Numbered from the stretch's first letter, positions 42,244 to 59,031 are shown. The stretch: 64,000 nucleotides of DNA from Lentisphaerota bacterium (GCA_015061565.1 SUWI01000001.1:21505-85504), one strand, 5' to 3'. Notes: generated from the sequence alone by a model not told the origin. Program-made: numbers and translations.

Positions 42244-43623
42244 ATGCAAACCAGAATACATGATCTTTACCGTCCGATCGAACAGCGCAAGCTCGATTTC
42301 AAGGAAGTGGAACGGATTATTTCCGAATCTGAAATACGTCAGCAGATGCAGCGCTGCCATAACTGCGGAATACCGTTCTGCCACGGTGCGGGATGTCCGC
42401 TTTTCAACCAGATCCCCGACTTCAATTCCGCAGCAGCCGAGGGCAATTGGAAAACCGCTTACGAAATTCTTTCTCAGACAAGTTTCTTCCCTGAGTTCAC
42501 CTGCCGCGTATGCCCTGCCCTTTGCGAAGGTTCCTGCTGCAATGGAGTCAGCGACGAGGCTGTTATGGTCCGTCAATGCGAAAAAATGATCATTGAAAAA
42601 GCTTTTGCGTCCGGTCTGGTCCAGCCGGTGATCCCAGTATCGCGGAACGGCAAAAAAATCGCCGTCGTCGGCAGCGGACCCTCGGGTCTGACTGCGGCGG
42701 AAGCGCTCAACCGCAGCGGCTTTTCCGTGACCGTTTTCGAGGCTAACCACCGGCCGGGCGGACTGCTCCGTTTCGGCATACCGGATTTCAAACTGGACAA
42801 ATCCGTGATAGACCGCCGGATCGCCGTTATGGAACTGGCGGGGATCGAGTTCATAACGGATACGCGGATCGGCAAGGATATTTCCGCAGCTTATCTGCTG
42901 CGTACCTATGATGCCGTGGTGCTGGCGATCGGTACTCCGCAGGCAAGAGATCTGGCTATTCCCGGACGCGAGCTGAACGGCATTCATTTTGCACTGGAAT
43001 TCCTGCAGGGACAAAACCGCTTGAATTCAGGTGAAACAGCCTCGCTTCCAGTCAATGCAGCGGGAAAAGATGTGCTCATCATCGGCGGCGGCGACACCGG
43101 GAGCGACTGTGCTGGAACAGCCATCCGCCAGGGAGCGAAAAGCGTCCGGCAGATCGAGATCATGCCGCAGCCGCCGGAAAAACGTTCCGATTCGACGCCG
43201 TGGCCGAACTGGCCGTGGATGCTCCGCACCAGTTCCAGCCATCAGGAAGGCTGTGCGCGGGAATGGAATATCGCCAGTGACCGTTTTATCGGCAAAAACG
43301 GCAAAGTTTCCGGGGTGGAAATACATGAAGTGAAGTGGACTTTTTCACCGGAAGGAAAACCGATCAAGCCGCAGGAAGTTCCGGACAGTTCCAAAGTCAT
43401 CAAAGCAAATCTGATCCTGCTGGCAATGGGTTTCACCGGAGTTCCGAAAAACGGCATTGTCGAAGAACTGGATCTGCAGCTTTCACCTCGAAACGGCATC
43501 CTTGCAGACCCTGAAAAACGCATTTATGCGGTCGGAGACTGTGTAACGGGAGCCTCGTTGGTAGTGCGTTCCATGGCCAATGCAAAACAGACTGCGGAAG
43601 TAATCTGCAAACAGTTAATTTAA
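42244..43623 (+). CDS. gltD: Glutamate synthase small subunit (NADPH)
   Basis: Start MQTRIHDLYRP, 1 nt after the gltB stop. Cys clusters CHNCGIPFCH...CPLFN. VAVVGSGPSGLTAAEAL dinucleotide fold. Confidence 0.9.
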   Translation: MQTRIHDLYRPIEQRKLDFKEVERIISESEIRQQMQRCHNCGIPFCHGAGCPLFNQIPDFNSAAAEGNWKTAYEILSQTSFFPEFTCRVCPALCEGSCCNGVSDEAVMVRQCEKMIIEKAFASGLVQPVIPVSRNGKKIAVVGSGPSGLTAAEALNRSGFSVTVFEANHRPGGLLRFGIPDFKLDKSVIDRRIAVMELAGIEFITDTRIGKDISAAYLLRTYDAVVLAIGTPQARDLAIPGRELNGIHFALEFLQGQNRLNSGETASLPVNAAGKDVLIIGGGDTGSDCAGTAIRQGAKSVRQIEIMPQPPEKRSDSTPWPNWPWMLRTSSSHQEGCAREWNIASDRFIGKNGKVSGVEIHEVKWTFSPEGKPIKPQEVPDSSKVIKANLILLAMGFTGVPKNGIVEELDLQLSPRNGILADPEKRIYAVGDCVTGASLVVRSMANAKQTAEVICKQLI

Positions 43624-44700
43624 TCTTGCAGTTTCACCGGCTTTGACCTGAAAATGATCGCATTTTTCCAGTCTGAATTCCGGCGGAATTTCGGTGAAGG
43701 CAAAGAAAACCTGTCCGGCAGTGCGGATTTTTTCCAGAAAAGCCTGTCTGGCGTGCAGATCGAGGTCGGCGGTGGCATCGTCGACCAGCACGACCGTATC
43801 ATTCAGCGCGCCGCTGACCTCGCGGACCGCATCCAGTTCCGCGAGTTTCAGGATCAATGAGGTCATCCGGCATTGTCCGCGGGAACCGAAGGACCGCATC
43901 GGTTTGCCGTCGAACATAAATTCGAAATCATCCAGATGCGGTCCGAACGTGGTGAATCCGCGCTGCAGGTCGCGTTTCAGGTCGTTTTCGGCTTTTTTCA
44001 GGTAAGAATCCGGATCGGCTGTCTCTTTCGTAAAATCCATCTGAATAGTGAAATCGGACAGGGAGGGATACAATTCTTCGAAAAGCTGTTTCATCAGCCT
44101 GGAAATGAGCTCGACGTATTTTTCCCTTTTCCGCACGATTTCCGATCCGGACGAAGCCAGCACGGTCGAATAGGAACGCAGAATATCCAGATTGCAGTTA
44201 TGGGTTTTCAGCAGCATATTACGAGAACGCAATGCCTGAAGATAATTCTGCAGAGCCATGAAATAACTCCGGTCCAGCAGGGAAATGAACATATCGAAAA
44301 AACGGCGGCGCAGCGGTGACGGACCGCTGATGATCAGGGGATCGTCAGGCAGAAAAGCAACTGTTTTGATCTTGCCGGTGAAATCACTGGCTTTACTGAC
44401 CGGAACACGGTCAGACTGCAAGGTGCGCACCAGTCCGCAATCGACCTCAAGAAGCGATTTCCAGCCCTGCATTTTCCGGAACAGAAGTGACAGATGAAAA
44501 GAGGAAGATCCCAGCTTTTTCAGCTCGTTGATTTTGACCGTCCGGAACGAACGCAGATTGGCCACGTAAAAGACAGCTTCGAGCAGGGAAGTTTTCCCCT
44601 GGCCGTTGCCGCCTTCGAAAAAAACCGCATCGGAATCGAACTGCAGTTCGGAACGGCTGATATTCCTGAAATTTTCGAGCTTGAGGGACTCTATGATCAT
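43615..44700 (-). CDS. recF: DNA replication/repair protein RecF
   Basis: Start MIIESLKLENFRN. Walker A GGNGQGKTSLLEA. Signature and Walker B VVLVDDATADLD. Confidence 0.9.
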   Translation of the reverse strand: MIIESLKLENFRNISRSELQFDSDAVFFEGGNGQGKTSLLEAVFYVANLRSFRTVKINELKKLGSSSFHLSLLFRKMQGWKSLLEVDCGLVRTLQSDRVPVSKASDFTGKIKTVAFLPDDPLIISGPSPLRRRFFDMFISLLDRSYFMALQNYLQALRSRNMLLKTHNCNLDILRSYSTVLASSGSEIVRKREKYVELISRLMKQLFEELYPSLSDFTIQMDFTKETADPDSYLKKAENDLKRDLQRGFTTFGPHLDDFEFMFDGKPMRSFGSRGQCRMTSLILKLAELDAVREVSGALNDTVVLVDDATADLDLHARQAFLEKIRTAGQVFFAFTEIPPEFRLEKCDHFQVKAGETARLN

Positions 44701-44780
44701 AAGCAGCCGTCCTCGGAAAAAAAAGCTTCTGCCGGATCCGAAAACCCGGCAGAACGGCACTTGAAAACAGTCTCTGGGAC

Positions 44781-45881
44781 TTATTTGTTTCTCATGGGCA
44801 TGATGACATACAGGAAACCGTCGCCGCTTTCCAGAGCAATCGGACTGAAGGCATCATTGATCTTGACGATCACACTGTCTACGCCGATGTGTTTGAAAGG
44901 ATCGGCCAGCAGCTGCGGATTGAAAGACAGCGAAATATCTTCCTGATCCGCATATTCGATATTGATGTACTCCTTACCTTCACCGATATTGCTGTTCGCT
45001 TCGAAGACCAGCTTGTTGTCCGTGAAAGTGATCTTGACGAAGGAGGAAGAAGCATCGCTGAGCGGAATGCTGACGATTTCCAGCGCATCCACAAAATCGC
45101 CGGTCGGAACGGAGATATTCTTGTTGAAACCGGCCGGAATGACCTGACGGTAATTCGGATAATTGCCTTCGATCAGCTTCGAATAAATCACAGTCTCGTT
45201 CAGACGGAACACGACCTGTTTTTCGCCGATCTCCATCTCCACTTCGCCTTCCTTTTCCAGGATGCGCTTGACTTCATTGGCGACTTTAATGGTGATGATC
45301 ACATCGCCGTCGGCGCCTTCAGCAGTGCCTTCGAGAAGTTTTTCGACCAGAGCCAGACGTTTTCCATCGGTGGCGACCGCGGTCATATTGCCTTCTTTGA
45401 CCGAAAGCAGAATGCCCTGAAGCACTTTTCTGGAATCATCGATGCTGACTGCATAGGAGATCCGGTCGAGAACACGGGCAAAATCAGGCTGTTTGAGCTT
45501 GATGCTGCGCAGGGGCTGGAAATCCACCGGCACCGGGAAATCTTCCGGAGTCAGACCCAGGATCATGAAATTCGCCGTGCCGCAGCAGATCTGGGTATGA
45601 TGTTTGTCGTTGGATTCCATCATCAGATTCTCGCCTTTGAACTTGGAGACCAGGCCAAGCAGACGTTTTGCCGGCAAAGTCGTCACACCCGGAACCTCCA
45701 CTTCGGCATCTATCGTGGTGGTGATCCGCAGTTCCAAATCGGTCGTCGTAAGAGTAAGTTTTCCGTTTTCAGCTTCGAGCAGCACATTGGCAAGGACCGG
45801 AAGGGTAGTCCGGTTCGGAATGATGTTGCTCACCTTCATCAGCGCTTTCTGCAATGCGTCTTTCTTCAAATTGACTTTCAT
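44781..45881 (-). CDS. dnaN: DNA polymerase III beta sliding clamp
   Basis: Start MKVNLKKDALQKALMKVSNIIPNRTTLPVLANVLLEA (RBS AAAGAGG). Three-domain length. C-terminus YVIMPMR. Confidence 0.9.
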   Translation of the reverse strand: MKVNLKKDALQKALMKVSNIIPNRTTLPVLANVLLEAENGKLTLTTTDLELRITTTIDAEVEVPGVTTLPAKRLLGLVSKFKGENLMMESNDKHHTQICCGTANFMILGLTPEDFPVPVDFQPLRSIKLKQPDFARVLDRISYAVSIDDSRKVLQGILLSVKEGNMTAVATDGKRLALVEKLLEGTAEGADGDVIITIKVANEVKRILEKEGEVEMEIGEKQVVFRLNETVIYSKLIEGNYPNYRQVIPAGFNKNISVPTGDFVDALEIVSIPLSDASSSFVKITFTDNKLVFEANSNIGEGKEYINIEYADQEDISLSFNPQLLADPFKHIGVDSVIVKINDAFSPIALESGDGFLYVIMPMRNK

Positions 45882-46110
45882 GTTGACCTCTTTCCCCAAT
45901 TCGATACTGGTTATTGATTAATCTCTTTCTAAGGTAATATATCATCATTATTATGGATGTCAATATTGTCAACAAACTCTTTTTTCAAGTTCATTTCTTT
46001 TTTTTCGATTTTGTTGATTTTTTGTTTTGCATTTTTCGATAAACCATGCTCTATTGATAGACAAATCAATTGAGAACAAGTTTCGAACAGCATTTAACAA
46101 GGTTATCAAC

Positions 46111-50139: not shown

Positions 50140-51672
50140 ATGAAAAAAAACGTCCTGCTGGTTCTGTTCTGTTTGACCGGAATGCTTTCCGCATCCGTTC
50201 CGGAATGGAAATACACGCTCAGTAAAAACGAAATCAGAATTACCGCATCAGTTCCGGCCAACGAGTACCTTTACCGGAAAGAAACTGACGCCGAACTGAC
50301 GGCTGACGGGATGGCTGTCAAGCCCGTCACTTTTCCGTCAACTGTGACGCATGAGGATGAATTTTCCGGCAAAACGGAAATTTATCCGGGCGGCAAGCTC
50401 CTGACCTGGGTTTTCCGTTCGGAGAAATGGAATTTTCCGTTGAAATTCAAGGTGAAATGGCAGGGCTGTTCCAAGGGAACTCCCAACGAACCTGGGGTGT
50501 GTTTCATGCCGGGTTCCGGCGAAATGACGCTCCGGAATTTCCAAGCTGTTTCCGCTCCGAAAGTCATGACTTTCGAACCGACGGAAGAACCGCTTTCCTC
50601 CCCTGCCCCGAATGCGGATTTTCCCAAGTTCGAAATCATCAGGGCCGAATCGGGATTTATCGGAGCGCCGCAGTTCGTCCAGTTTCTCAAGGGGGAAAAA
50701 CGGGAATTGTTTCTGAGTTTTGCCGGCAAAAATTTCTGGCTGATCCTGCTGCTGACCTTTCTCGGCGGCATCGCTCTGAACCTGACTCCGTGCGTGCTGC
50801 CGATGATCCCTATCAATCTGGCGATCATAGGGGCGAGGGACGGTTCCCGCTGGAACTGCATGTTCCGCGGTCTGGTTTACGGTGCGGGCATCGCGTTGGC
50901 CTACGGCATCCTCGGAATAGTGGTCGTGGTGACGGGCAGCAGTTTCGGCGTGATCGATTCCGCCTGGTGGTTCAATGCGCTGGTTGCGCTGCTCTTTATC
51001 GGGCTGGGATTGTCCATGTTCGATGTCTTCATATTGGATTTTTCCCGTTTCAGTTCCTCCCTGCCGGGCATATCCGGTGCGCGTTATGCGGGTATTTTCC
51101 TGATGGGAGTGATAGCCGCCCTGCTGGCGGGAGCCTGCGTTGCGCCTGTGGTAGTGGCCGCCCTGCTGCAGTCGGGCAAGATGTATAATTCCGGAGAAAC
51201 GGCCGGTCTTTTCCTGCCGCTGGTTCTGGGATTGGGCATGGCCCTTCCCTGGCCGGTCCTGGCCGGCGGTTTTGCCGTCATGCCCAGGCCCGGAAACTGG
51301 ATGAAATGGGTAAAATATATATTTGGCGTAATAATTATCGGTCTCGGATTGTATTACGCGTTCCTGTCCTATGAAATCGTCACTTCCAAATCCGATGATT
51401 CCGGGAAAAGCATCGATTTATTGAAAGAGTCACTCGGTCGATCGGCCAGGGAAAAGAAGCCGGTGCTGCTGGATTTCCGGGCCGAATGGTGCAAGAACTG
51501 CAAAGCCATGGAACAGACCACTTTCAAGGATCCGGCAGTGATTGACGAACTTAAAAACTTCATTTTCGTCAAATTTGACGCCACGGAAATCTCCGATCCG
51601 GCAATCAGTTCCGTCCTGAAAAGATTCCAGGTCTCCGGCCTTCCCGCCTACCTGATCGTTCAGGGAAAATAA
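50140..51672 (+). CDS. DsbD-like thiol:disulfide interchange protein (CcdA-type TM core plus C-terminal thioredoxin)
   Basis: Signal peptide and N-terminal periplasmic domain. TM core LNLTPCVLPMIPI. C-terminal thioredoxin fold with WCKNCK. Confidence 0.8.
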   Translation: MKKNVLLVLFCLTGMLSASVPEWKYTLSKNEIRITASVPANEYLYRKETDAELTADGMAVKPVTFPSTVTHEDEFSGKTEIYPGGKLLTWVFRSEKWNFPLKFKVKWQGCSKGTPNEPGVCFMPGSGEMTLRNFQAVSAPKVMTFEPTEEPLSSPAPNADFPKFEIIRAESGFIGAPQFVQFLKGEKRELFLSFAGKNFWLILLLTFLGGIALNLTPCVLPMIPINLAIIGARDGSRWNCMFRGLVYGAGIALAYGILGIVVVVTGSSFGVIDSAWWFNALVALLFIGLGLSMFDVFILDFSRFSSSLPGISGARYAGIFLMGVIAALLAGACVAPVVVAALLQSGKMYNSGETAGLFLPLVLGLGMALPWPVLAGGFAVMPRPGNWMKWVKYIFGVIIIGLGLYYAFLSYEIVTSKSDDSGKSIDLLKESLGRSAREKKPVLLDFRAEWCKNCKAMEQTTFKDPAVIDELKNFIFVKFDATEISDPAISSVLKRFQVSGLPAYLIVQGK

Positions 51673-51679
51673 ACACCGA

Positions 51680-51745
51680 TGACGGATAATTGACGGAACG
51701 ATGACGGGCCTTGATTTTCCAGATTGACGGTCTTTCGATCCGTCA
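51680..51745 (+). repeat. TGACGG(A/G) x3 with 11-bp period, plus a TGACGG/CCGTCA inverted pair
   Basis: TGACGGA 51680 and 51691, TGACGGG 51702, then TGACGG 51725 / CCGTCA 51740. Nearly collinear with the 709-737 array. Confidence 0.6.
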
Positions 51746-52310
51746 TTGAAGATCTATAAAAATAATGAATGTAATATTTCATTTCAGAAAAGATCGTATC
51801 CGCCATAAAATCTCAGAGTTGCCGCTGGCAGCCTGCCGGATTACAGTCCGTTTATCTAAACCGATCCGATGAAAAAACGCTCTTATGTCTCTTTGTCGAA
51901 AGATGTGGAAAATCAACCGGACAACGGGAGAAAAAAACCATATCCTTTCACCCTCTGACAAAAAATGACAGACCCTTTGGTGTATATTATTTGACAACAG
52001 AAAATTCGTAATGAGCCGGAACGGGTCCGGTTCGACGGTCCTCTGTGCCGAAAAAGGATCGCCCTCGTTTGAACTCGGCGAATTTTTAACGAAAGGAACT
52101 GACGGCGATGATTGATTTCATTTGGTCGTGCATTGTTGAGGTTGTCCGTAATGGCGACCAGCACTAGTTGCGGTTAATATTTCGAGTCGGTAACCGACTC
52201 ACTCTATGAGTAAGCACGTTCCGTACTCTGTCGAAGAACGGAACTATTTGAACTGCGGAAGACGCGGAAGCGTCATTTTGATTATTTGTTTTACTGAATT
52301 TGATGACAGA

Positions 52311-52349
52311 GCCGCATCCGCCGGATGCGGGTGCGGCGTATTTTTATTT
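52311..52349 (+). terminator. Rho-independent terminator-like hairpin plus T-tract
   Basis: GCCGCATCCGCCGGATGCGGGTGCGGC has nested stems CCGCATCC/GGATGCGG and GCCGCA/TGCGGC. It is followed by GTATTTTTATTT and lies 35 nt upstream of the ATG at 52385. Confidence 0.55.
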
Positions 52350-52384
52350 CGGTCAAAAAGTCCAACAACAAAATGGAGAAAAAA

Positions 52385-53206
52385 ATGCTAACAGAGTATA
52401 TCAAAACCGCCCTGACAAAGAATAATATCCAATACACGAAGGATGAAGACTCCTTCAATTTCAAACACCCGCTGTGTCCGAAGTTCGTGGACTGCCTCAT
52501 CACCTGGGAGGAAACGCGCAAACAGATACAGCTCGTTGCCGATTACGAGATCAAGATGCCGGCGACTCTGAGTAATGAGGAATTTGCAGCAATGCTCAAT
52601 GACCTGAATTACGACAGCAGCTGGGGAAATCTCGAAACGGATCGGCACGGACTTCTTGTCTACCGTCTTGAGACCTTCCTGCCGGACGGGCGTGATGCCG
52701 CCGTGGAAATCTGTTCCAGGGCGCTGGAGTATTTCCGGATGGCACCCATATTACAGTTCAGGAAAGTGGAAATACGGCTGAATCAGATCCACGAAAATGA
52801 ATCGAGCAGGAATATGTGCCGCGCCATGCCGGAATCGCTGAGAAGCGGCGTTATCGAACTGGAATGCATGCACCACCGTATTATGCAAATGGCGGAAACC
52901 GCCGACATCCTCTTCGATGAATTCCAGCTCGTCAACCAGGACGCCATGACGCAAACCCGTCTCGGCGACGCAGGAAAAGAGCGGGTGAAACGGGATGCCC
53001 GGGTTCTGCGGCAGGAGGAAGAGAAACTTCACGCTGATATCCGGGCTTTCGCGACCCGTTATCGTCTCCCGCTGAACTTGAAGGAATTGCCCGGCGGCTG
53101 GACTCTGCACGGATTCCGAAAGGATTTCGCGCTCACCGGTTTCCTCAATACGGCGCTGACGGACCTTTTTATTGCTCTCTGCGGAGGAAATCACCATGCC
53201 GCATGA
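52385..53206 (+). CDS. Hypothetical protein; N-terminal half weakly resembles the YbjN/T3SS-chaperone-like fold, C-terminal half is helical
   Basis: RBS GGAGA 5-6 nt before MLTEYIKTAL. N-terminal pattern IQYTKDEDSFNFKH...LITWEE...IQLVADYEIKMPA...LVYRLETFL. Fold assignment is by eye only. Confidence 0.5.
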   Translation: MLTEYIKTALTKNNIQYTKDEDSFNFKHPLCPKFVDCLITWEETRKQIQLVADYEIKMPATLSNEEFAAMLNDLNYDSSWGNLETDRHGLLVYRLETFLPDGRDAAVEICSRALEYFRMAPILQFRKVEIRLNQIHENESSRNMCRAMPESLRSGVIELECMHHRIMQMAETADILFDEFQLVNQDAMTQTRLGDAGKERVKRDARVLRQEEEKLHADIRAFATRYRLPLNLKELPGGWTLHGFRKDFALTGFLNTALTDLFIALCGGNHHAA

Positions 53207-53810
53207 CGATCGATTCTGGAAGTGGCCGCTCAGCCGCGAGATTTTTTTCGCTCCGGCCACGGCGGTCGGCGTGCGATGGACTTTTCTCGGACACCGCGAA
53301 TGGGGCTTTTCGCTGGACCGCAGATGGATCGTCTATCGTGACGGCGTGATCGGATGGGAGATGCTCCGGCGATGCCGCAATATTTCGATTCTGGCGCTGG
53401 AAAACAAGCCTCGCGGATTTCGCGGCATCGTCCCGAAACTCCGCGGGCTGGCAGAAGAAGCGAAAACTTTCGACCGGACATGGGACTTCCTGAAGGCGGT
53501 TTTCGACATCCCGGAAAACGAGATGCCGTATCTGCCCGAACTGCTGATCCGCCGTTATGGTGAAATCGCCTGGCATCCCTATGCACCCAGCCTGAATCCG
53601 AAGCGACGGTTCGTCGGCGACAGCATGATCGAAACCAGCGAACTGGAAGGCGACCTTCCGCTCACGACCCGCTGGGAGATCCATCACTGGAAATGCGAAT
53701 GTGACAGGAAGCTGGTCAGTTTTCAGAAAATACCGCACTGGGTATATCATTCCAGCGTGTGTCATCCTCGCTGTATCTGCGGAAAAATCGTGCAAAATCG
53801 GGAATCGTAA
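53196..53810 (+). CDS. Hypothetical protein with C-terminal Cys/His cluster
   Basis: RBS GGAGGA before MPHDDRFWKW. 11-nt overlap with the upstream gene. C-terminus HHWKCECDRK...HSSVCHPRCICGK suggests a zinc-binding module. Confidence 0.5.
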   Translation: MPHDDRFWKWPLSREIFFAPATAVGVRWTFLGHREWGFSLDRRWIVYRDGVIGWEMLRRCRNISILALENKPRGFRGIVPKLRGLAEEAKTFDRTWDFLKAVFDIPENEMPYLPELLIRRYGEIAWHPYAPSLNPKRRFVGDSMIETSELEGDLPLTTRWEIHHWKCECDRKLVSFQKIPHWVYHSSVCHPRCICGKIVQNRES

Positions 53811-53822
53811 CTTGTAACCAAC

Positions 53823-53865
53823 CCTCCGCCGGAGTAAATTAAGGAAATCCGGCGGAGGAAATTTT
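53823..53865 (+). terminator. 11-bp perfect hairpin CCTCCGCCGGA/TCCGGCGGAGG followed by AAATTTT
   Basis: 14-nt loop. Located between the stop at 53810 and the ATG at 53877. Confidence 0.45.
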
Positions 53866-53876
53866 GGAGAAAGAAA

Positions 53877-54608
53877 ATGACAAAAGAAGAATCGTTTTGG
53901 AACATTGCAGAAAATGTATTGAAAGACATGCTTCAAAAATTACCTGGACTTTGCCCGGACCAGTATGTTCTTCAAATATTCAAATTAAAAGGACAACCGC
54001 AAAACCCGGAAAGTGTTTTCCCAAAAAGCAAAAGAATAGATATATTTGAACAAGATACGCTGGACCTTACGGATGTTTTTGGAAATATTCTCACGTCTCC
54101 AAAAGTCAAATCTCCTTTCATGATTTTTATCCTTGAATCTCCGCACAAAAAGGAATTTGATAAGAATGGAAAACCCATTGGTCCTGCAATGGGAAATACA
54201 GGAATAAACATCAGAGAACACATTCGGGAAAATTTCAGAAAGCACATTAAACACTTTCAAAACTATCACTTGATATTAATGAATGCCATCCCGTTTCAAT
54301 GTTCACTTGGGGTAGAACCTCCAGGTTCTATTCGAGATGCGGTCTTTGACGCTGCTTGGGAAGATGAAAAAGTTGGAAAGTCTTTTTTCGAGGATAGATT
54401 AGACTCTCTGCTGAAAGCGTTACAAAAAAAGACTGTTGTCATTGTTAATGCCTGTACAGCGAGCAAAAGCAGAAAATCCAATGTTACAAAAGCAATACTA
54501 AAAAAACTGAATAAGTGGGTAAAAGAAGTTTGGGAAGTTCCGCATCCATCTTCACCTCATTGGTGCAAAGGGAAGAACTTTAAGAAGATATATACATCAA
54601 AGAGTTAG
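53877..54608 (+). CDS. Uracil-DNA-glycosylase-superfamily-fold protein (divergent), visibly AT-rich gene
   Basis: ILESPHKKEFDKNGKPIGPAMGNTG aligns by eye with the family-4 UDG motif GE.PG..E...G.PF.G.AG. LMNAIPFQC resembles N..KCRP. VPHPSSPHW resembles the HPS motif. About 80 aa of unique N-terminal extension. Confidence 0.5.
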   Translation: MTKEESFWNIAENVLKDMLQKLPGLCPDQYVLQIFKLKGQPQNPESVFPKSKRIDIFEQDTLDLTDVFGNILTSPKVKSPFMIFILESPHKKEFDKNGKPIGPAMGNTGINIREHIRENFRKHIKHFQNYHLILMNAIPFQCSLGVEPPGSIRDAVFDAAWEDEKVGKSFFEDRLDSLLKALQKKTVVIVNACTASKSRKSNVTKAILKKLNKWVKEVWEVPHPSSPHWCKGKNFKKIYTSKS

Positions 54609-54619
54609 ACTCAACGTTG

Positions 54620-54653
54620 TTCCCCGGTTTTGCAAGCATACAAAACCGGGGAG
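54620..54653. terminator. Bidirectional terminator hairpin between convergent genes
   Basis: TTCCCCGGTTTTG-caagcata-CAAAACCGGGGAG, 12-13 bp stem, followed by TTTTGCTT on the plus strand. Confidence 0.65.
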
Positions 54654-54660
54654 TTTTGCT

Positions 54661-55098
54661 TCATTCCTTTCCCGTGCTTCCGAAGCCGCCGGAGCCCCGG
54701 TCGGTTTCGGTCAGTTCGGCGACTTCCGTCAGCGTGACTTCCGGGAGTTTGCAGATCACCATCTGCGCGATGCGGTCACCTGTGCGGATGGGGAAGACAT
54801 CACTCCCGAGGTTGAAGAGGATCACTTTGACCTCGCCGCGATAGTTCGCATCGACCGTGCCGGGCGAATTGGTCACGGTGATATGGTGTTTCGCCGCCCA
54901 GCCGCTGCGGGGGCGGATCTGCGCCTCGTATCCGGGCGGCAGTTCCATCGCGAATCCGGCGGGGACGACCGCGCCGGAAAGCGGTTCGAGTTCGATATCC
55001 ACGCGGGAACGCAGATCGTATCCCGCATCATCATGATGTGCTTTGACCGGGAGGAAATCTTCGCATCCCGGCATGAGTTTGATCTTGATTTCTGTCAT
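54661..55098 (-). CDS. dut: dUTP diphosphatase
   Basis: HDDAGYDL, PRSG, GTVDANYRGEV, DRIAQ, C-terminal RGSGGFGSTG. Confidence 0.95.
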   Translation of the reverse strand: MTEIKIKLMPGCEDFLPVKAHHDDAGYDLRSRVDIELEPLSGAVVPAGFAMELPPGYEAQIRPRSGWAAKHHITVTNSPGTVDANYRGEVKVILFNLGSDVFPIRTGDRIAQMVICKLPEVTLTEVAELTETDRGSGGFGSTGKE

Positions 55099-56661: not shown

Positions 56662-57779
56662 ACTACTTTTTCCTTTCTTTTGACTTTTTCGGGCAGGATC
56701 GCCCTTTGGTTGGGGTTTTTACTTGAACGCATTACGTTGATAAAGTTTTCGAGTTCGTTTTTGAGTTCGCCGAGCATGGGACGCTTCAGCGGCTCGTGGT
56801 GACCGTCCACAAACATCCGGATGAAGAGATGCTTCAATCCGGGCGTCAGCCAGCTCACCGATTTGTACCATCCGACGGGCAGGCGGACTCCGTCACGGCG
56901 GGCGAGGGGACATTTGCCGGATTTAAGGTTTTCGACCGGATCACCGCCGCCGCACTGGGCATAGGGATGCAGTCCGCTCATGAGGATCATGTAGACCACG
57001 ACTGCGAGGCTGAACCGCACCTGTTCGGGAGTCCGTTCCCGGTTGAAGAGTTCCGGATGGAACAGCAGTTCGGGTGCGGTGTATTCCGGCGTGAAGGTGC
57101 GGGTGAGAAACGTGTTCTGATTGTCGCCCGCGCCGGGGATCTGAAAACTGTCACAGTCAATGAGGCGGATACGGCCGAGTGGATCGACCAGGAAGTTGTC
57201 CGGATTGAAATCGTTGACGAGCACGCGGTGGCGTGCGAGCATCTGGACGGCGTTGACGAGATTGAGTGCGACCTTGGTCACGCTCAGGCGGTCCCAGCCG
57301 GGGAAGAAGCGTCTGACCTGGCAGGGAGCATAAAGTGCACGCAGAGTCCGTCCGGAATTTTTGCGCATGACGAAACCGATGACATTTTTATTCTGATCGA
57401 AAACGGGCATCAGAGGCCAGGCGAGGAACGGGGCGTTGCGGCATTCCACCAGTGCCAGCATCGCATTGAGACGGTCGCGGAAAGCGGCCAGTTTCCGGCT
57501 GTCGCGCAGTGTATCGTCCTTGCAGACTTTGATCAGGAAGGCGGGATTTTTCGCAAAACTGAAAATCACGCCTTCTCCGCCGTGCGCCAGGACATCCGAT
57601 TTCCGCAGCGACAGAGCCGCACCCATCGGATCATAGACGGTGCGGGAACGGTCCGGGGGAGCCTGAGCAAGAGCCAGCCAGTCGGCGCCGACGGGCGGGG
57701 CCTGTTGCTTCCTGCGCGCCGCCGGGCGGACAATCCGTCTCGGTGAAGAGGAAAACAGATGTGACCAGATGAAGTTCAT
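56658..57779 (-). CDS. Atypical Ser/Thr protein kinase-like protein
   Basis: Start MNFIWSHLF (ATGA overlap with the upstream stop). G-loop HGGEGVIF, lysine LIKV, catalytic loop VNDFNPDNFLV, LIDCDSF (DFG-like), TPEYTAPE. Confidence 0.75.
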   Translation of the reverse strand: MNFIWSHLFSSSPRRIVRPAARRKQQAPPVGADWLALAQAPPDRSRTVYDPMGAALSLRKSDVLAHGGEGVIFSFAKNPAFLIKVCKDDTLRDSRKLAAFRDRLNAMLALVECRNAPFLAWPLMPVFDQNKNVIGFVMRKNSGRTLRALYAPCQVRRFFPGWDRLSVTKVALNLVNAVQMLARHRVLVNDFNPDNFLVDPLGRIRLIDCDSFQIPGAGDNQNTFLTRTFTPEYTAPELLFHPELFNRERTPEQVRFSLAVVVYMILMSGLHPYAQCGGGDPVENLKSGKCPLARRDGVRLPVGWYKSVSWLTPGLKHLFIRMFVDGHHEPLKRPMLGELKNELENFINVMRSSKNPNQRAILPEKVKRKEKVV

Positions 57780-58300
57780 TCGGCAGCTTCTTCCTGTTCT
57801 TCTTCCGAGTCTTCGGCAGTTTCTTCCGGCAGATCGTAAGTCAGCCATTCGAACGAACCGAATTTCTTTTCGAGCGCATCATCGACTTTCGCAGCATCTT
57901 CCACGCCGAGACATTTCAGGACGAAGGTTTTCGTGGAGGGAAAACGTTCCTCTTCGACCGCGTTCCGGGCGGCAAAATCCACCTCATGGGAACCGACGGC
58001 GATACGTTTTTTTCCTGCGACCTTGAGCGTATCCGCGCTGTGCAGCGAGAGGAAATCTTCCAGGTCCATGTATTCGGGTTCTTTTTCGGCGTTCAGGGAG
58101 ATGATCTGCGTGCCGGTGAGAATGCCGTAATACTTTTTGCCGTCCGCCCGGCAATATGCCGTTGCGCCGGGACGCAGATATTTGACCGTTACGGTTTCGC
58201 GCAGATCCTCTTTGAGTTCATTCCATGCGTCTTCGATATCGCTGAACAGCTGTTTGGTCGCGTCCGAAAGACAATCCACAAATTCTTCAAAATCACTCAT
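57776..58300 (-). CDS. Hypothetical protein (174 aa) with acidic C-terminal tail
   Basis: RBS AAAGGAAG before MSDFEEFVD. Ends ...LPEETAEDSEEEQEEAAE. No domain recognised. Translationally coupled to the kinase. Confidence 0.55.
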   Translation of the reverse strand: MSDFEEFVDCLSDATKQLFSDIEDAWNELKEDLRETVTVKYLRPGATAYCRADGKKYYGILTGTQIISLNAEKEPEYMDLEDFLSLHSADTLKVAGKKRIAVGSHEVDFAARNAVEEERFPSTKTFVLKCLGVEDAAKVDDALEKKFGSFEWLTYDLPEETAEDSEEEQEEAAE

Positions 58301-58321
58301 TTTGCTTCCTTTCATTTTTTG

Positions 58322-58394: not shown

Positions 58395-58589
58395 TCACAC
58401 ATTCCAGACCGAGTTTTTGACCATTTTGACCTTGCATTTGGGGCAAACCGGCGGCCGGGAGGACCCGGAAAACAGCGGCAGGCAGGTATGGATCAGCGGA
58501 TTCGGCCGTTCCGTGGTGGCAGTTACCTTCCCGCATTTCGGGCATTTCCAGTGAACAGTCCGGATCGGCATTCGAACAAACGAACTCAT
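58395..58589 (-). CDS. Small zinc-ribbon protein (~64 aa)
   Basis: Two CxxC pairs, CPKCGK ... CPKCKVKM. ATG at 58589 forms an ATGA overlap with the upstream stop (a GTG at 58595 is also possible). Confidence 0.5.
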   Translation of the reverse strand: MSSFVRMPIRTVHWKCPKCGKVTATTERPNPLIHTCLPLFSGSSRPPVCPKCKVKMVKNSVWNV

Positions 58590-58990
58590 GCGCACATCTC
58601 CTGAAGTTGAAAAGCGCAGTCCTGAAGAGCAGACTGAAAATCCCCGATTTTGTCGCTGGTTTCGTAAAGCGCATCCGAGGTGCCGGATTTGCCGACTTTC
58701 CAGAGCTCATCGCTGATGTTCAAATCGGGAACGGCAGGGACGATTTCACTTTTTCCGAGCTGGGCGGCGATTGCGGCGAGGTCTTCGTGAATGGATTTCA
58801 GGAACCGCCACTCCAGCTGAAGTTCCTCAACGACCTTGCGTTTGTACGGAGTCATTTCTCCGGAATCTTCCTTCGAGACGCATCTGATTATTTTTTCCAT
58901 GATCTCGAAATCATGTTTCGTGGCGTCAAATCCCAGCGAGACCAGCGCCCACAGTTCCTGAGTGAGGATGTTTTTTTCTTTTTCCGTCAT
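58586..58990 (-). CDS. Hypothetical helical protein (134 aa)
   Basis: RBS AAGGAGA before MTEKEKNILTQELW. First gene of the minus-strand operon. No domain recognised. Confidence 0.55.
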   Translation of the reverse strand: MTEKEKNILTQELWALVSLGFDATKHDFEIMEKIIRCVSKEDSGEMTPYKRKVVEELQLEWRFLKSIHEDLAAIAAQLGKSEIVPAVPDLNISDELWKVGKSGTSDALYETSDKIGDFQSALQDCAFQLQEMCA

Positions 58991-59012
58991 GAGACCTTTC
59001 TCCTTTTTGATT

Positions 59013-59031
59013 CTGCCATACACCTATTATA
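59013..59031 (-). promoter_or_regulatory. Putative promoter of the six-gene operon (TATAAT -10 plus GTATGGCAG)
   Basis: Minus-strand ...CCGTATAATAGGTGTATGGCAGAATCAAAAAGGAGAAAGGTCTCATG. The -35 is weak. Confidence 0.45.

Follow-up and report, generated by a model that had tools for sequence, protein, structure and literature searches.

The described systems closest to the locus analyzed here are Brig1, Brig2, and Brig3, single-gene antiphage glycosylases of the uracil-DNA glycosylase (UDG) superfamily that excise modified bases; homologs of Brig2 have been reported in A/T-rich regions associated with mobile elements (PMC11078745; bioRxiv 10.1101/2025.10.29.685425; PMC13160076). UDG-like defense genes have also been found in integron cassettes (Brig2 preprint, bioRxiv 10.1101/2025.10.29.685425). 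We analyzed a cassette of three plus-strand genes, g1, g2, and g3, located between positions 52385 and 54608 of a 64,000-nucleotide stretch of DNA from a Lentisphaerota bacterium (GCA_015061565.1 SUWI01000001.1:21505-85504), referred to in its entirety as the window. A sequence-only reading of the window had singled out the three genes as lacking any confident family assignment and had proposed that they form an undescribed defense or DNA-modification-sensing module. The three open reading frames (ORFs) lie where that reading placed them, and their reality is backed by the ratios of nonsynonymous to synonymous substitution rates (dN/dS) of g1 and g2 and by 414 clusters of g3 homologs. Housekeeping homology was sought for all three genes and none was found, searches of Pfam, NCBIfam, PADLOC, and PHROGs yielding only a sub-threshold YbjN match for g1.

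We read the region, with confidence that is about evenly poised, as two juxtaposed and co-oriented units, a separate g1–g2 pair and a Brig-like single-gene defense glycosylase cassette. The first unit (about 52010–53858) would lead from a leader ORF and a terminator-like hairpin through the g1–g2 bicistron to a sequence-conserved hairpin, with g1 serving as a chaperone-like or antitoxin-like binding partner of g2. The second (53859–54654) would be an exchangeable cassette slot, bounded by this junction hairpin and by a terminator shared with the dUTPase gene dut, and g3 would be one allele of a large, patchy, and unannotated family with a UDG-like fold. The g3 protein would act as a stand-alone Brig-like effector that flips a noncanonical base (uracil, or a pyrimidine or purine that is hypermodified) out of invading DNA and excises it; the abasic sites left behind would block replication, and allele swapping between strains would change the target base or permit escape from phage-encoded inhibitors. 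The features of the locus are the following.

52108–52167, plus strand: micro-ORF of 19 codons (MIDFIWSCIVEVVRNGDQH, then stop), candidate leader peptide of the g1–g2 unit
52311–52347, plus strand: terminator-like hairpin (52311–52337) and T-run, candidate attenuator, ending about 38 nt before the g1 start
52385–53206, plus strand: g1 (273 aa), acidic, composed of a YbjN-like domain (resembling type III secretion chaperones) at the N-terminus and a helical domain at the C-terminus
53196–53810, plus strand: g2 (204 aa), basic (isoelectric point, pI, 9.1), Trp-rich (5.4% Trp) orphan with a C-terminal H-x2-CxC...CxCG zinc-ribbon-like tail
53811–53858, plus strand: junction element, CTTGTAA right after the g2 stop and then a hairpin (arms 53823–53833 and 53848–53858)
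53877–54608, plus strand: g3 (243 aa), slot gene, basic (pI 9.5), predicted UDG-like alpha/beta fold, candidate DNA glycosylase effector
54619–54654, no strand assigned: hairpin between the convergent g3 and dut, 14 pairs followed by a T-run, probable right boundary of the slot
54661–55098, minus strand: dut, dUTPase (Pfam dUTPase, 3e-31), conserved, flanking the slot on the right and closing the Z–Y–kinase–vWA–PP2C–dut block

Replacement of the gene between g2 and dut

Loci of relatives (numbered with the prefix L) are contigs fetched through g1, g2, or g3 homology. The common order in contigs carrying g1 and g2 is micro-ORF–(LRAT genes)–g1–g2–slot gene, facing dut, and after dut (X)–(PP2C–vWA–kinase)–Y–Z and then a WYL gene. 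The arrangement of g1, g2, and a slot gene recurs in 10 distinct loci, and each of the 10 loci long enough to show it has dut adjoining the slot. Eight of the 10 slots hold alleles of the g3 family, 30% to 55% identical to each other, and the remaining two (L008 and L071) hold proteins, designated type B, that are about 50% identical to each other and have no significant similarity to g3. Across these loci, g2 is 50% to 91% identical and the synonymous sites of the slot genes are saturated; occupancy by the g3 family or by type B does not follow the g2 tree. In the comparison of the window with L069, g1, g2, and dut are 91% to 95% identical, with synonymous divergence (dS) of 0.28 to 0.41, whereas the slot genes are 45% to 49% identical with a dS of 1.30. 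Because slot-gene dS reaches 1.3 to 1.8 versus 0.28 to 0.55 for the flanks, the slot gene was replaced and did not diverge in place. The right flank is particularly stable, dut being 93% to 96% identical among high-GC relatives (dN/dS 0.05–0.08).

Base composition was also compared. The GC content of g3 is 36.7%, versus 54.8% for the window, and no other long ORF has a lower value; the slot gene lies 9 to 17 GC points under its locus in 9 of the 10 loci. Turnover of the slot is xenologous replacement at a fixed position, neither one recent acquisition nor mere fast evolution in place. The earlier view of g3 as an AT-rich, recently acquired gene is borne out with respect to composition, foreignness, and replacement (as seen from dS), but not with respect to a single recent acquisition. 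The hairpin that closes the slot is, judging from its 14 pairs and T-run, probably a bidirectional terminator of g3 and dut. In L001, L005, L069, and L071, the slot gene and dut are separated by an equivalent hairpin, CCCCGG...CCGGGG; the hairpin of L008 is different.

The type B proteins display GDNPGxxE after a hydrophobic strand as well as VLNK, both resembling UDG motifs, and one layout, hydrophobic strand–(G/E)xxP(G/H)xxE...(L/M)N, is seen in both slot families. Two hhalign runs of type B against the g3 family were non-significant and differed in register, and homology between the two families is suggested by motif inspection only. Type B profiles matched nothing in the PDB, and type B is absent from 50,697 phage genomes. 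Outside Lentisphaeria, relatives of type B were found in Azospirillum only (7 records, 35%–44% identity over residues 35–107). The relative in Azospirillum brasilense Sp7 resides on chromid p1 (L097 3053–4654), divergent beside dcd, and the gene is present in 7 strains; dcd encodes a dCTP deaminase and is a dUTPase-superfamily gene, so that the adjacency echoes that of slot and dut. This chromid region carries no annotation in the plasmid table. A frameshift or assembly error is suggested in the type B gene of L071 (8066–8700), because it matches the L008 protein in two frames (residues 1–163 and 163–217).

That the three genes constitute one obligate system is disfavored by their distributions: g3 occurs alone in at least 8 phyla, g1–g2 is confined to a single lineage, and the slot genes of L008 and L071 are unrelated to g3. 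Among 57 species-level genome loci of the g3 family, g1, g2, and dut stand beside the g3 homolog in the query lineage only.

The g3 family and its candidate activity

The g3 family comprises 414 homologous clusters (90% identity), and the Pfam field is empty for 120 of the 120 homologs listed. Sixteen residues are invariant, namely those in the groups LESPHxxE (E87, S88, H90, and E93) and NAxxxQCSxG (N136, Q141, C142, S143, and G145), F157, R174, those of NxCT (N191, C193, and T194), and those of HP (H223 and P224), and an N-terminal CPDQY motif is nearly invariant. The AlphaFold2 model of g3 (pLDDT, predicted local distance difference test, 86.6; predicted template modeling score, pTM, 0.87) contains strands at residues 81–86, 131–136, 187–191, and 215–220, each followed by an invariant motif. 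In UDGs, a catalytic acid follows strand 1, a base-recognizing Asn ends strand 2, and the histidine of an HPS motif follows strand 4. Their catalytic loops after strand 1 are of the GQDPYH, GEAPG, and GINPG types, with a water-activating acid, and UDGs are typified by HPS and (L/M)N motifs.

The arrangement in g3 parallels this scheme. N136 ends strand 131–136, and H223-P224, followed by Ser, comes after strand 215–220; L-E87-S-P-H90-x-x-E93 stands directly after strand 81–86, its acid and place fitting the UDG loop and its consensus differing. In the model, E87, N136, and H223 would thereby take the places of the UDG catalytic acid, the base-recognizing Asn, and the HPS histidine. As far as the model can be trusted, g3 shares with the UDG superfamily (Ung, family 4 Fe-S UDGs, and poxvirus D4) the four-strand beta-alpha-beta core, the acid right after strand 1, the Asn ending strand 2, and the His-Pro-Ser after strand 4, but has about 75 additional residues in its N-terminal part. 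Several chains of the vaccinia D4 UDG were near the top of the Foldseek matches in the PDB (probability 0.77–0.84, E about 0.04, TM 0.33), D4 being the only recurrent nucleic-acid enzyme among the top PDB matches; rank 1 was an unrelated Arf1 complex. Foldseek against BFVD gave its best matches to large phage DNA polymerases (about 1050 aa) and to unnamed proteins (probability up to 0.93, E about 0.01), with a crAss-like phage UDG lower in the list. A match of the g3 profile to the small subunit of poxvirus VITF-3 in the PDB (E 0.011) was judged spurious. On balance, g3 is somewhat more likely than not to be UDG-fold-like and a glycosylase. The UDG-fold motifs pointed out in the sequence-only reading agree in placement and fit the model, but no search reached statistical significance; likewise, a DNA-glycosylase-fold effector is the best reading of g3, although the fold match is statistically unsupported.

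The invariant residues can also be read differently. g3 might be an alpha/beta enzyme of another kind, for instance a Ser/His hydrolase (an esterase or deacylase similar to SGNH enzymes or cutinases), in which S88 and H223 would be catalytic. The invariant S88 comes directly after strand 1, strands 2 and 3 are followed by N136 and N191, and H223 is close to the C-terminus, a disposition that resembles SGNH blocks I, III, and V, and cutinases, CE2 esterases, and an SGNH phage protein are among the weak Foldseek matches. The esterase matches, however, mostly have probabilities of 0.14 to 0.4, versus 0.77 to 0.93 for UDG and the phage polymerases; the DxxH block is absent from g3, whose pI of 9.5 makes it strongly basic; from what is known of the UDG superfamily, the HPS and (L/M)N motifs point to UDGs; and none of 101 g3-family members matched a Pfam lipase or SGNH model. 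A hydrolase is a very improbable identity for g3.

Members of the g3 family are distributed patchily over at least 8 phyla. The hosts include Lentisphaeria, Myxococcus (Myxococcota), Methylococcales, Alpha-, Beta-, and Gammaproteobacteria, and Azospirillum, as well as Cloacimonadota, Ignavibacteria, Clostridia, Mollicutes, and Fusobacteria, and homologs were found on 12 IMG/VR viral contigs and 2 plasmids. The neighborhoods of g3 are highly variable. Genes recurring immediately upstream encode RtcR-like CARF/sigma-54 activators (L029, L041, and L048) and WYL-WCX regulators (L034, L047, and L063), and the Pycsar effector PycTM, accompanied by an integrase, also recurs upstream (L037, L043, and L044). 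In a PADLOC search of 150 proteins encoded within two genes of g3 homologs, RtcR-CARF (3), WYL (3), PycC/PycTM, MADS mad2/3/8, type I restriction-modification methyltransferases, PARIS AriA, PDC-S48, and DEDDh were recovered. In an Oscillospiraceae metagenome-assembled genome (MAG; L050 4773–8564), a 1263-aa protein combines a kinase, a STAND/NB-ARC NTPase, and TPR with a complete C-terminal g3 domain in which all invariants are kept; by its domain composition, this fusion has the architecture of an immune sensor joined to an effector domain. A more distant Lentisphaeria locus (L012) contains a YbjN-like gene and an LRAT gene directly before the g3 homolog. The setting of the cassette is defense-like, in line with the defense island suggested for it: the locus has a TerY-P triad and a WYL gene, relatives also carry GmrSD and WYL genes, and g3-family genes in other phyla adjoin known defense genes.

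The resemblance to Brig1–3 extends to several properties: a single gene of about 200 to 300 aa, a UDG-like alpha/beta core (predicted in g3) missed by sequence models, a patchy occurrence across phyla, and residence in A/T-rich, variable, defense-rich or mobile regions. By analogy, the candidate mechanism, excision of noncanonical bases from phage DNA, may also be shared. The g3 loop is, however, ESPHxxE rather than GxxPG, and g3 has three invariant cysteines and the N-terminal CPDQY motif. Brig2 and g3 are likened by description, not by sequence; g3 had no sequence match or significant structural match to solved glycosylases, and neither the PDB profile search nor Foldseek against the PDB returned a Brig entry for g3, although Brig structures may be outside the set. 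If g3 is a glycosylase, a large, unannotated clade spanning many phyla and with an unusual active-site loop would be added to the newly recognized antiviral DNA glycosylases, and the L050 fusion would link base excision to NTPase-type immune sensors. The Lentisphaeria locus, in which the same flanks enclose very different alleles, could then reveal base-specificity residues and the rate of turnover in gut bacteria.

Several observations weigh against a defense glycosylase cassette independent of g1–g2. The Foldseek E-values of 0.01 to 0.04, at a TM of about 0.33, provide no statistical support for a UDG; Pfam UDG (PF03167) was matched by 0 of 101 g3-family members at E <= 1, all 101 thus failing the UDG model; g3 had no match in PHROGs, PADLOC, or NCBIfam; and cutinase and SGNH esterases are also among its weak structural matches. 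An hhalign comparison pairs the HPS of g3 with HPSPLS of Escherichia coli Ung, in the HPS region only and with an overall score that is not significant. No g3 homolog was found in 50,697 phage genomes. The defense-neighbor counts stand without a background set, and several of the PADLOC models concerned describe generic regulators. At the locus itself, the slot is filled in every locus examined and always beside dut, which fits a required function better than a defense hotspot; its occupants all have UDG-like motifs or are g3-family members; and the sole outside relative of type B found sits beside dcd in Azospirillum. Finally, because g1–g2 and the slot gene are co-oriented and the junction hairpin is devoid of a T-run in several loci, their co-transcription and a functional link between them are possible.

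Part of this evidence would suit a housekeeping role, in which the slot gene would supply the lineage with its working enzyme for base excision, directed at uracil or a related lesion and paired with the dUTPase, and the replacements would be nonorthologous displacements between two analogous families. Filled slots in 10 of 10 loci, always next to dut, the motif layout common to the two slot families, and the type B relative beside dcd on a chromid in 7 Azospirillum strains are in line with such a role. Saturated dS next to flanks of about 0.3 and a GC content 9 to 17 points lower are, however, unexpected for a housekeeping gene, as are the occurrence on viral contigs and the fusion to a STAND NTPase. 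Moreover, g3-family genes elsewhere have no dut or dcd neighbor, the family is patchy across phyla, and the similarity between the slot families is non-significant, with inconsistent hhalign registers. We regard a repair role as rather doubtful.

The g1–g2 pair, its leader, and the junction hairpin

The g1 and g2 frames overlap by 11 nt (53196–53206), as had been recognized from the sequence. The same overlap is found in L001, L069, and L071, and one of 17 nt in L005; from this organization, g2 appears to be translationally coupled to g1. Clusters homologous to g1 number 20, all from the same lineage (63%–92% identity), and those homologous to g2 number 26 (49%–93% identity), with dN/dS of 0.12 to 0.19 and 0.15 to 0.22, respectively. 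A g2 profile matched 3 of 1.84 billion representatives, all from this Lentisphaeria lineage; a metagenome scan for g2 yielded 3 short loci only, and no match was found on viral contigs. The named relatives bearing g1 or g2 are Lentisphaeria MAGs from animal guts. The two genes are, then, a tightly coupled and conserved orphan pair under purifying selection (dN/dS 0.12–0.22), restricted to one lineage of gut Lentisphaeria, and the earlier description of a coupled pair without a family holds. The g2 protein had no match in Pfam, NCBIfam, PADLOC, PHROGs, or PDB; a PDB profile alignment of its residues 68–124 with 5f4c (E 1.8) is not usable, and the fold search was uninformative because the AlphaFold2 model is poor (pLDDT 49.8). 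The Cys/His cluster noted at its C-terminus (...HHWKCECDRK...HSSVCHPRCICGK) is conserved in 26 homologs, H164, C167, and C169 being invariant and C193 and C195 nearly so. A Pfam scan of all members of the g1, g2, and g3 alignments produced neither a UDG nor a barstar match.

The N-terminal domain of g1 (about residues 1–135, pI 5.1) scored against Pfam YbjN (PF10722) with an E-value of 7.9e-4 and 20.1 bits, below the cutoff of 22. Weak YbjN matches recur in 17 of 19 homologs, the best with an E-value of 2.5e-4, so that the weak YbjN-like N-terminal pattern perceived in the sequence-only reading is real and recurrent; the domain resembles the YbjN family, and membership is not demonstrable. A PDB profile search with g1 returned a coiled-coil match only. 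In L005–L011 and L089, g1 is split exactly between the domains into two overlapping genes (142 and 132 aa), as observed in the low-GC sister lineage at L005 9197–10017, L008 8256–9076, and L089 730–1550, and L069 contains a paralog of the N-terminal domain (38% identity) upstream of its LRAT genes. With YbjN and class I type III secretion chaperones, g1 shares the weak but consistent YbjN matches and, in the sister lineage, the form of a separate 142-aa gene just upstream of its presumed partner; it differs in the sub-threshold score, in the fusion to an extra helical domain, and in that no secretion apparatus is in view. These features suggest that g1 could be a binding partner of g2.

Such a pair might be a self-contained module unrelated to g3, toxin–antitoxin-like or chaperone–effector in kind, alongside which the slot gene merely landed. 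The overlapping frames, with an acidic protein upstream of a basic one, the YbjN/chaperone-like domain of g1, its paralog upstream of LRAT in L069, the YbjN-like and LRAT genes in L012, and the LRAT, Sel1, Ank, and LRR arrays on the left flank of relatives' loci are all compatible with this explanation. However, neither protein displayed type II toxin–antitoxin homology or likeness to a known toxin, antitoxin, or effector in Pfam, NCBIfam, PADLOC, PHROGs, or PDB, the similarity being one of organization; strong purifying selection and vertical inheritance in a single lineage are unusual for mobile toxin–antitoxin pairs; and no secretion system was seen in the window. This explanation is possible, if on the unlikely side.

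Upstream of g1, a gap of 712 nt (51673–52384) contains no long ORF, and the leader at 51990–52390 is more structured than shuffled controls (z = -2.9). The claim that about 700 bp of noncoding, structured sequence precede the cassette is correct in extent and structure, but the segment holds the conserved 19-codon ORF. All lineage loci of sufficient length (L001–L003, L005–L010, and L069–L072) have this micro-ORF, whose consensus is M[IL]DFIW[DSN]CIVEV[FV]RN[GR]D[EQ][QH]*, upstream of g1 (for instance, at L001 4164, L005 8016, L008 7077, L069 7075, and L071 5912), in each case with a Shine–Dalgarno-like motif ahead of it. Its nucleotide changes are mostly in third positions, i.e., of synonymous type, and about 16 of 19 residues are conserved between the high-GC and low-GC lineages, versus about 50% for g1 or g2, which makes it the best-conserved coding element of the locus. 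Its product could be a leader peptide or a functional microprotein.

Downstream of the micro-ORF, the terminator-like hairpin consists of 11 pairs (9 of them G-C), followed by TATTTTTAT, and is kept in L001, L003, and L069; the window leader is 96% identical to that of L069, and homology between the window and L069 starts at about 51956–52010. No Rfam family matched the leader or the hairpin. The short conserved ORF with its own ribosome-binding site ahead of the first structural gene, followed by alternative hairpins and a terminator, is reminiscent of leader-peptide attenuators such as tnaC and the erm leaders, but no known family matches the leader and, in the low-GC lineage, an LRAT-Sel1 gene, not g1, directly follows the micro-ORF. 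We infer from this layout that g1–g2 may be subject to leader-peptide-dependent attenuation, which might reach the slot gene by read-through.

The perfect 11-bp inverted repeat reported before g3 is present (CCTCCGCCGGA at 53823–53833 and TCCGGCGGAGG at 53848–53858). The junction element follows g2 in all lineage loci, including those of the low-GC lineage. Its 10-bp stem (CTCCGCCGGAG / CTCCGGCGGAG) and the loop start GTAWAWTAAG are conserved in sequence, with almost no covariation, and the hairpin sequence is kept even between lineages whose g2 proteins are 50% identical. The hairpin is without a T-run in L069 and several other loci. It occurs once in the window, and a role as a regulon-wide operator was rejected on account of this uniqueness; it is absent upstream of g3 homologs outside the lineage. 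In L071 and L088, the hairpin is duplicated around an extra ORF encoding a 66- to 68-aa zinc ribbon (L071 7722–8046 and L088 1712–2059) with two CxxC pairs (WKCPKCG...CPQCQ). The gene that comes after the extra ORF is of type B in L071 and belongs to the g3 family in L088. The WKCxxC motif of the extra ORF resembles the g2 tail (HHWKCEC).

These properties of the junction bear on whether all three genes could form one three-component defense or DNA-modification-sensing system, in which g1–g2 would be a sensor, regulator, or self-protection device and g3 its exchangeable effector on the same leader-controlled transcript. The genes all point the same way, and g2 and g3 are 66 nt apart; the hairpins devoid of a T-run in L069 and elsewhere make read-through likely; the g1–g2–slot order is maintained in the 10 loci; the slot always holds a protein with UDG-like motifs and never another kind of gene; L012 has YbjN-like and LRAT genes directly before a g3 homolog; and the hairpin sequence is conserved as expected of a protein-binding site. 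Against this, g3 homologs in every other phylum are without g1–g2, the pair persists unchanged where the slot holds an unrelated gene (L008 and L071), no relatives of g1 or g2 were detected outside one lineage, and g1–g2 show the evolutionary behavior of ordinary conserved genes, in contrast to the turnover of the slot gene. A single three-component system is doubtful.

The junction also invites comparison with integron-type and other cassette arrays, which it may resemble in the conserved imperfect palindrome ahead of each cassette gene, duplicated together with the extra cassette in L071 and L088, and in the differing combinations of cassettes. In contrast to integron arrays, the junction element always goes with the 3' end of g2, and g3 homologs elsewhere lack it. 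The duplication is known from these two loci only and bears no sign of site-specific recombination, and no integrase was found among the called genes of L001, L005, L008, L069, and L071 or in the annotated part of the window. With no integrase among the genes called in these loci, the exchange may depend on homologous recombination, either within the conserved flanks or at the hairpin, and recombination in the flanks would explain the exchange equally well as an integron-like process. It is quite improbable, yet worth stating, that the micro-ORF, g1, g2, and the hairpin form a fixed docking and control platform for exchangeable glycosylase cassettes, each with its own hairpin copy, in an integrase-less mini-cassette system. 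The zinc-ribbon ORF, g3-family alleles, and type B genes would be the cassettes, base-specificity modules would be swapped under a common signal-dependent control, and the hairpin would be an RNA or DNA operator bound by g1 or g2, or a recombination site. If true, this platform would represent a new regulated defense architecture for antiviral glycosylases. The g1–g2 pair, the leader ORF of 19 residues, and the junction hairpin are without a described counterpart and are small enough for direct testing.

Neighboring genes and relatives' loci

The left neighbor of the cassette is DsbD (50140–51672). On the right, starting from 54661 on the minus strand, dut is succeeded by genes for PP2C, vWA, and a Ser/Thr kinase, which make up a TerY-P-type triad, and beyond the triad by two genes without a family and a WYL-WCX regulator on the plus strand. 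Gene calls confirm that only dut separates the cassette from the TerY-P-like locus. The triad (vWA, PP2C, and Ser/Thr kinase) adjoins the cassette but belongs to a separate minus-strand operon ending in dut. In L008–L010, the triad is deleted and g1–g2–slot is intact, for which reason we treat it as a separable neighbor outside the g1–g2–slot unit; g1–g2–g3 does not covary with the vWA/PP2C/kinase triad across these losses. Short PP2C and kinase remnants are found between X and Y in L008 (11235–11551; also in L009 and L010), and dut, X, Y, Z, and WYL are kept. Y (179 aa, pI 4.5; window 57776–58315, minus strand) and Z (145 aa; 58586–59023, minus strand) are conserved in the block and have no family, as does X (about 120–135 aa; L001 7293–7655), which is absent from the window. 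Because the longest ORF that can be drawn for the kinase runs into Y, the kinase probably starts farther downstream.

The left flank varies among loci and consists of DsbD in the window and, in relatives, of WYL with a DUF7379 hydrolase, of LRAT/Sel1/Ank/LRR arrays, or of GmrSD with a sigma-54 ATPase. One or two LRAT (NlpC/P60-like) genes directly upstream of g1, often with a YbjN-like paralog or Sel1 repeats, were observed in relatives (L069 5087–6969, L071 3915–5804, L005 7065–9008, and L012 6709–7915); no LRAT remnants were detected in the 712-nt gap of the window. Farther left, the window consists of ordinary core genome (glutamate synthase, recF, dnaN, cdsA, and an aminotransferase), and farther right, a pseudouridine synthase gene comes after the WYL gene. 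No tRNAs and no Rfam matches were found in the window. Because recF and dnaN (43615–45899) lie about 7 kb left of the cassette, the island is probably near the replication origin region. In L001 (12706–15556) and L009 (7058–11069), WYL is followed by RtcB and a PrfH-like gene of the RF-1 family, an RNA repair/ribosome rescue pair, and in L001 a DnaB fragment lies beyond this pair, at the side where the window has the pseudouridine synthase instead.

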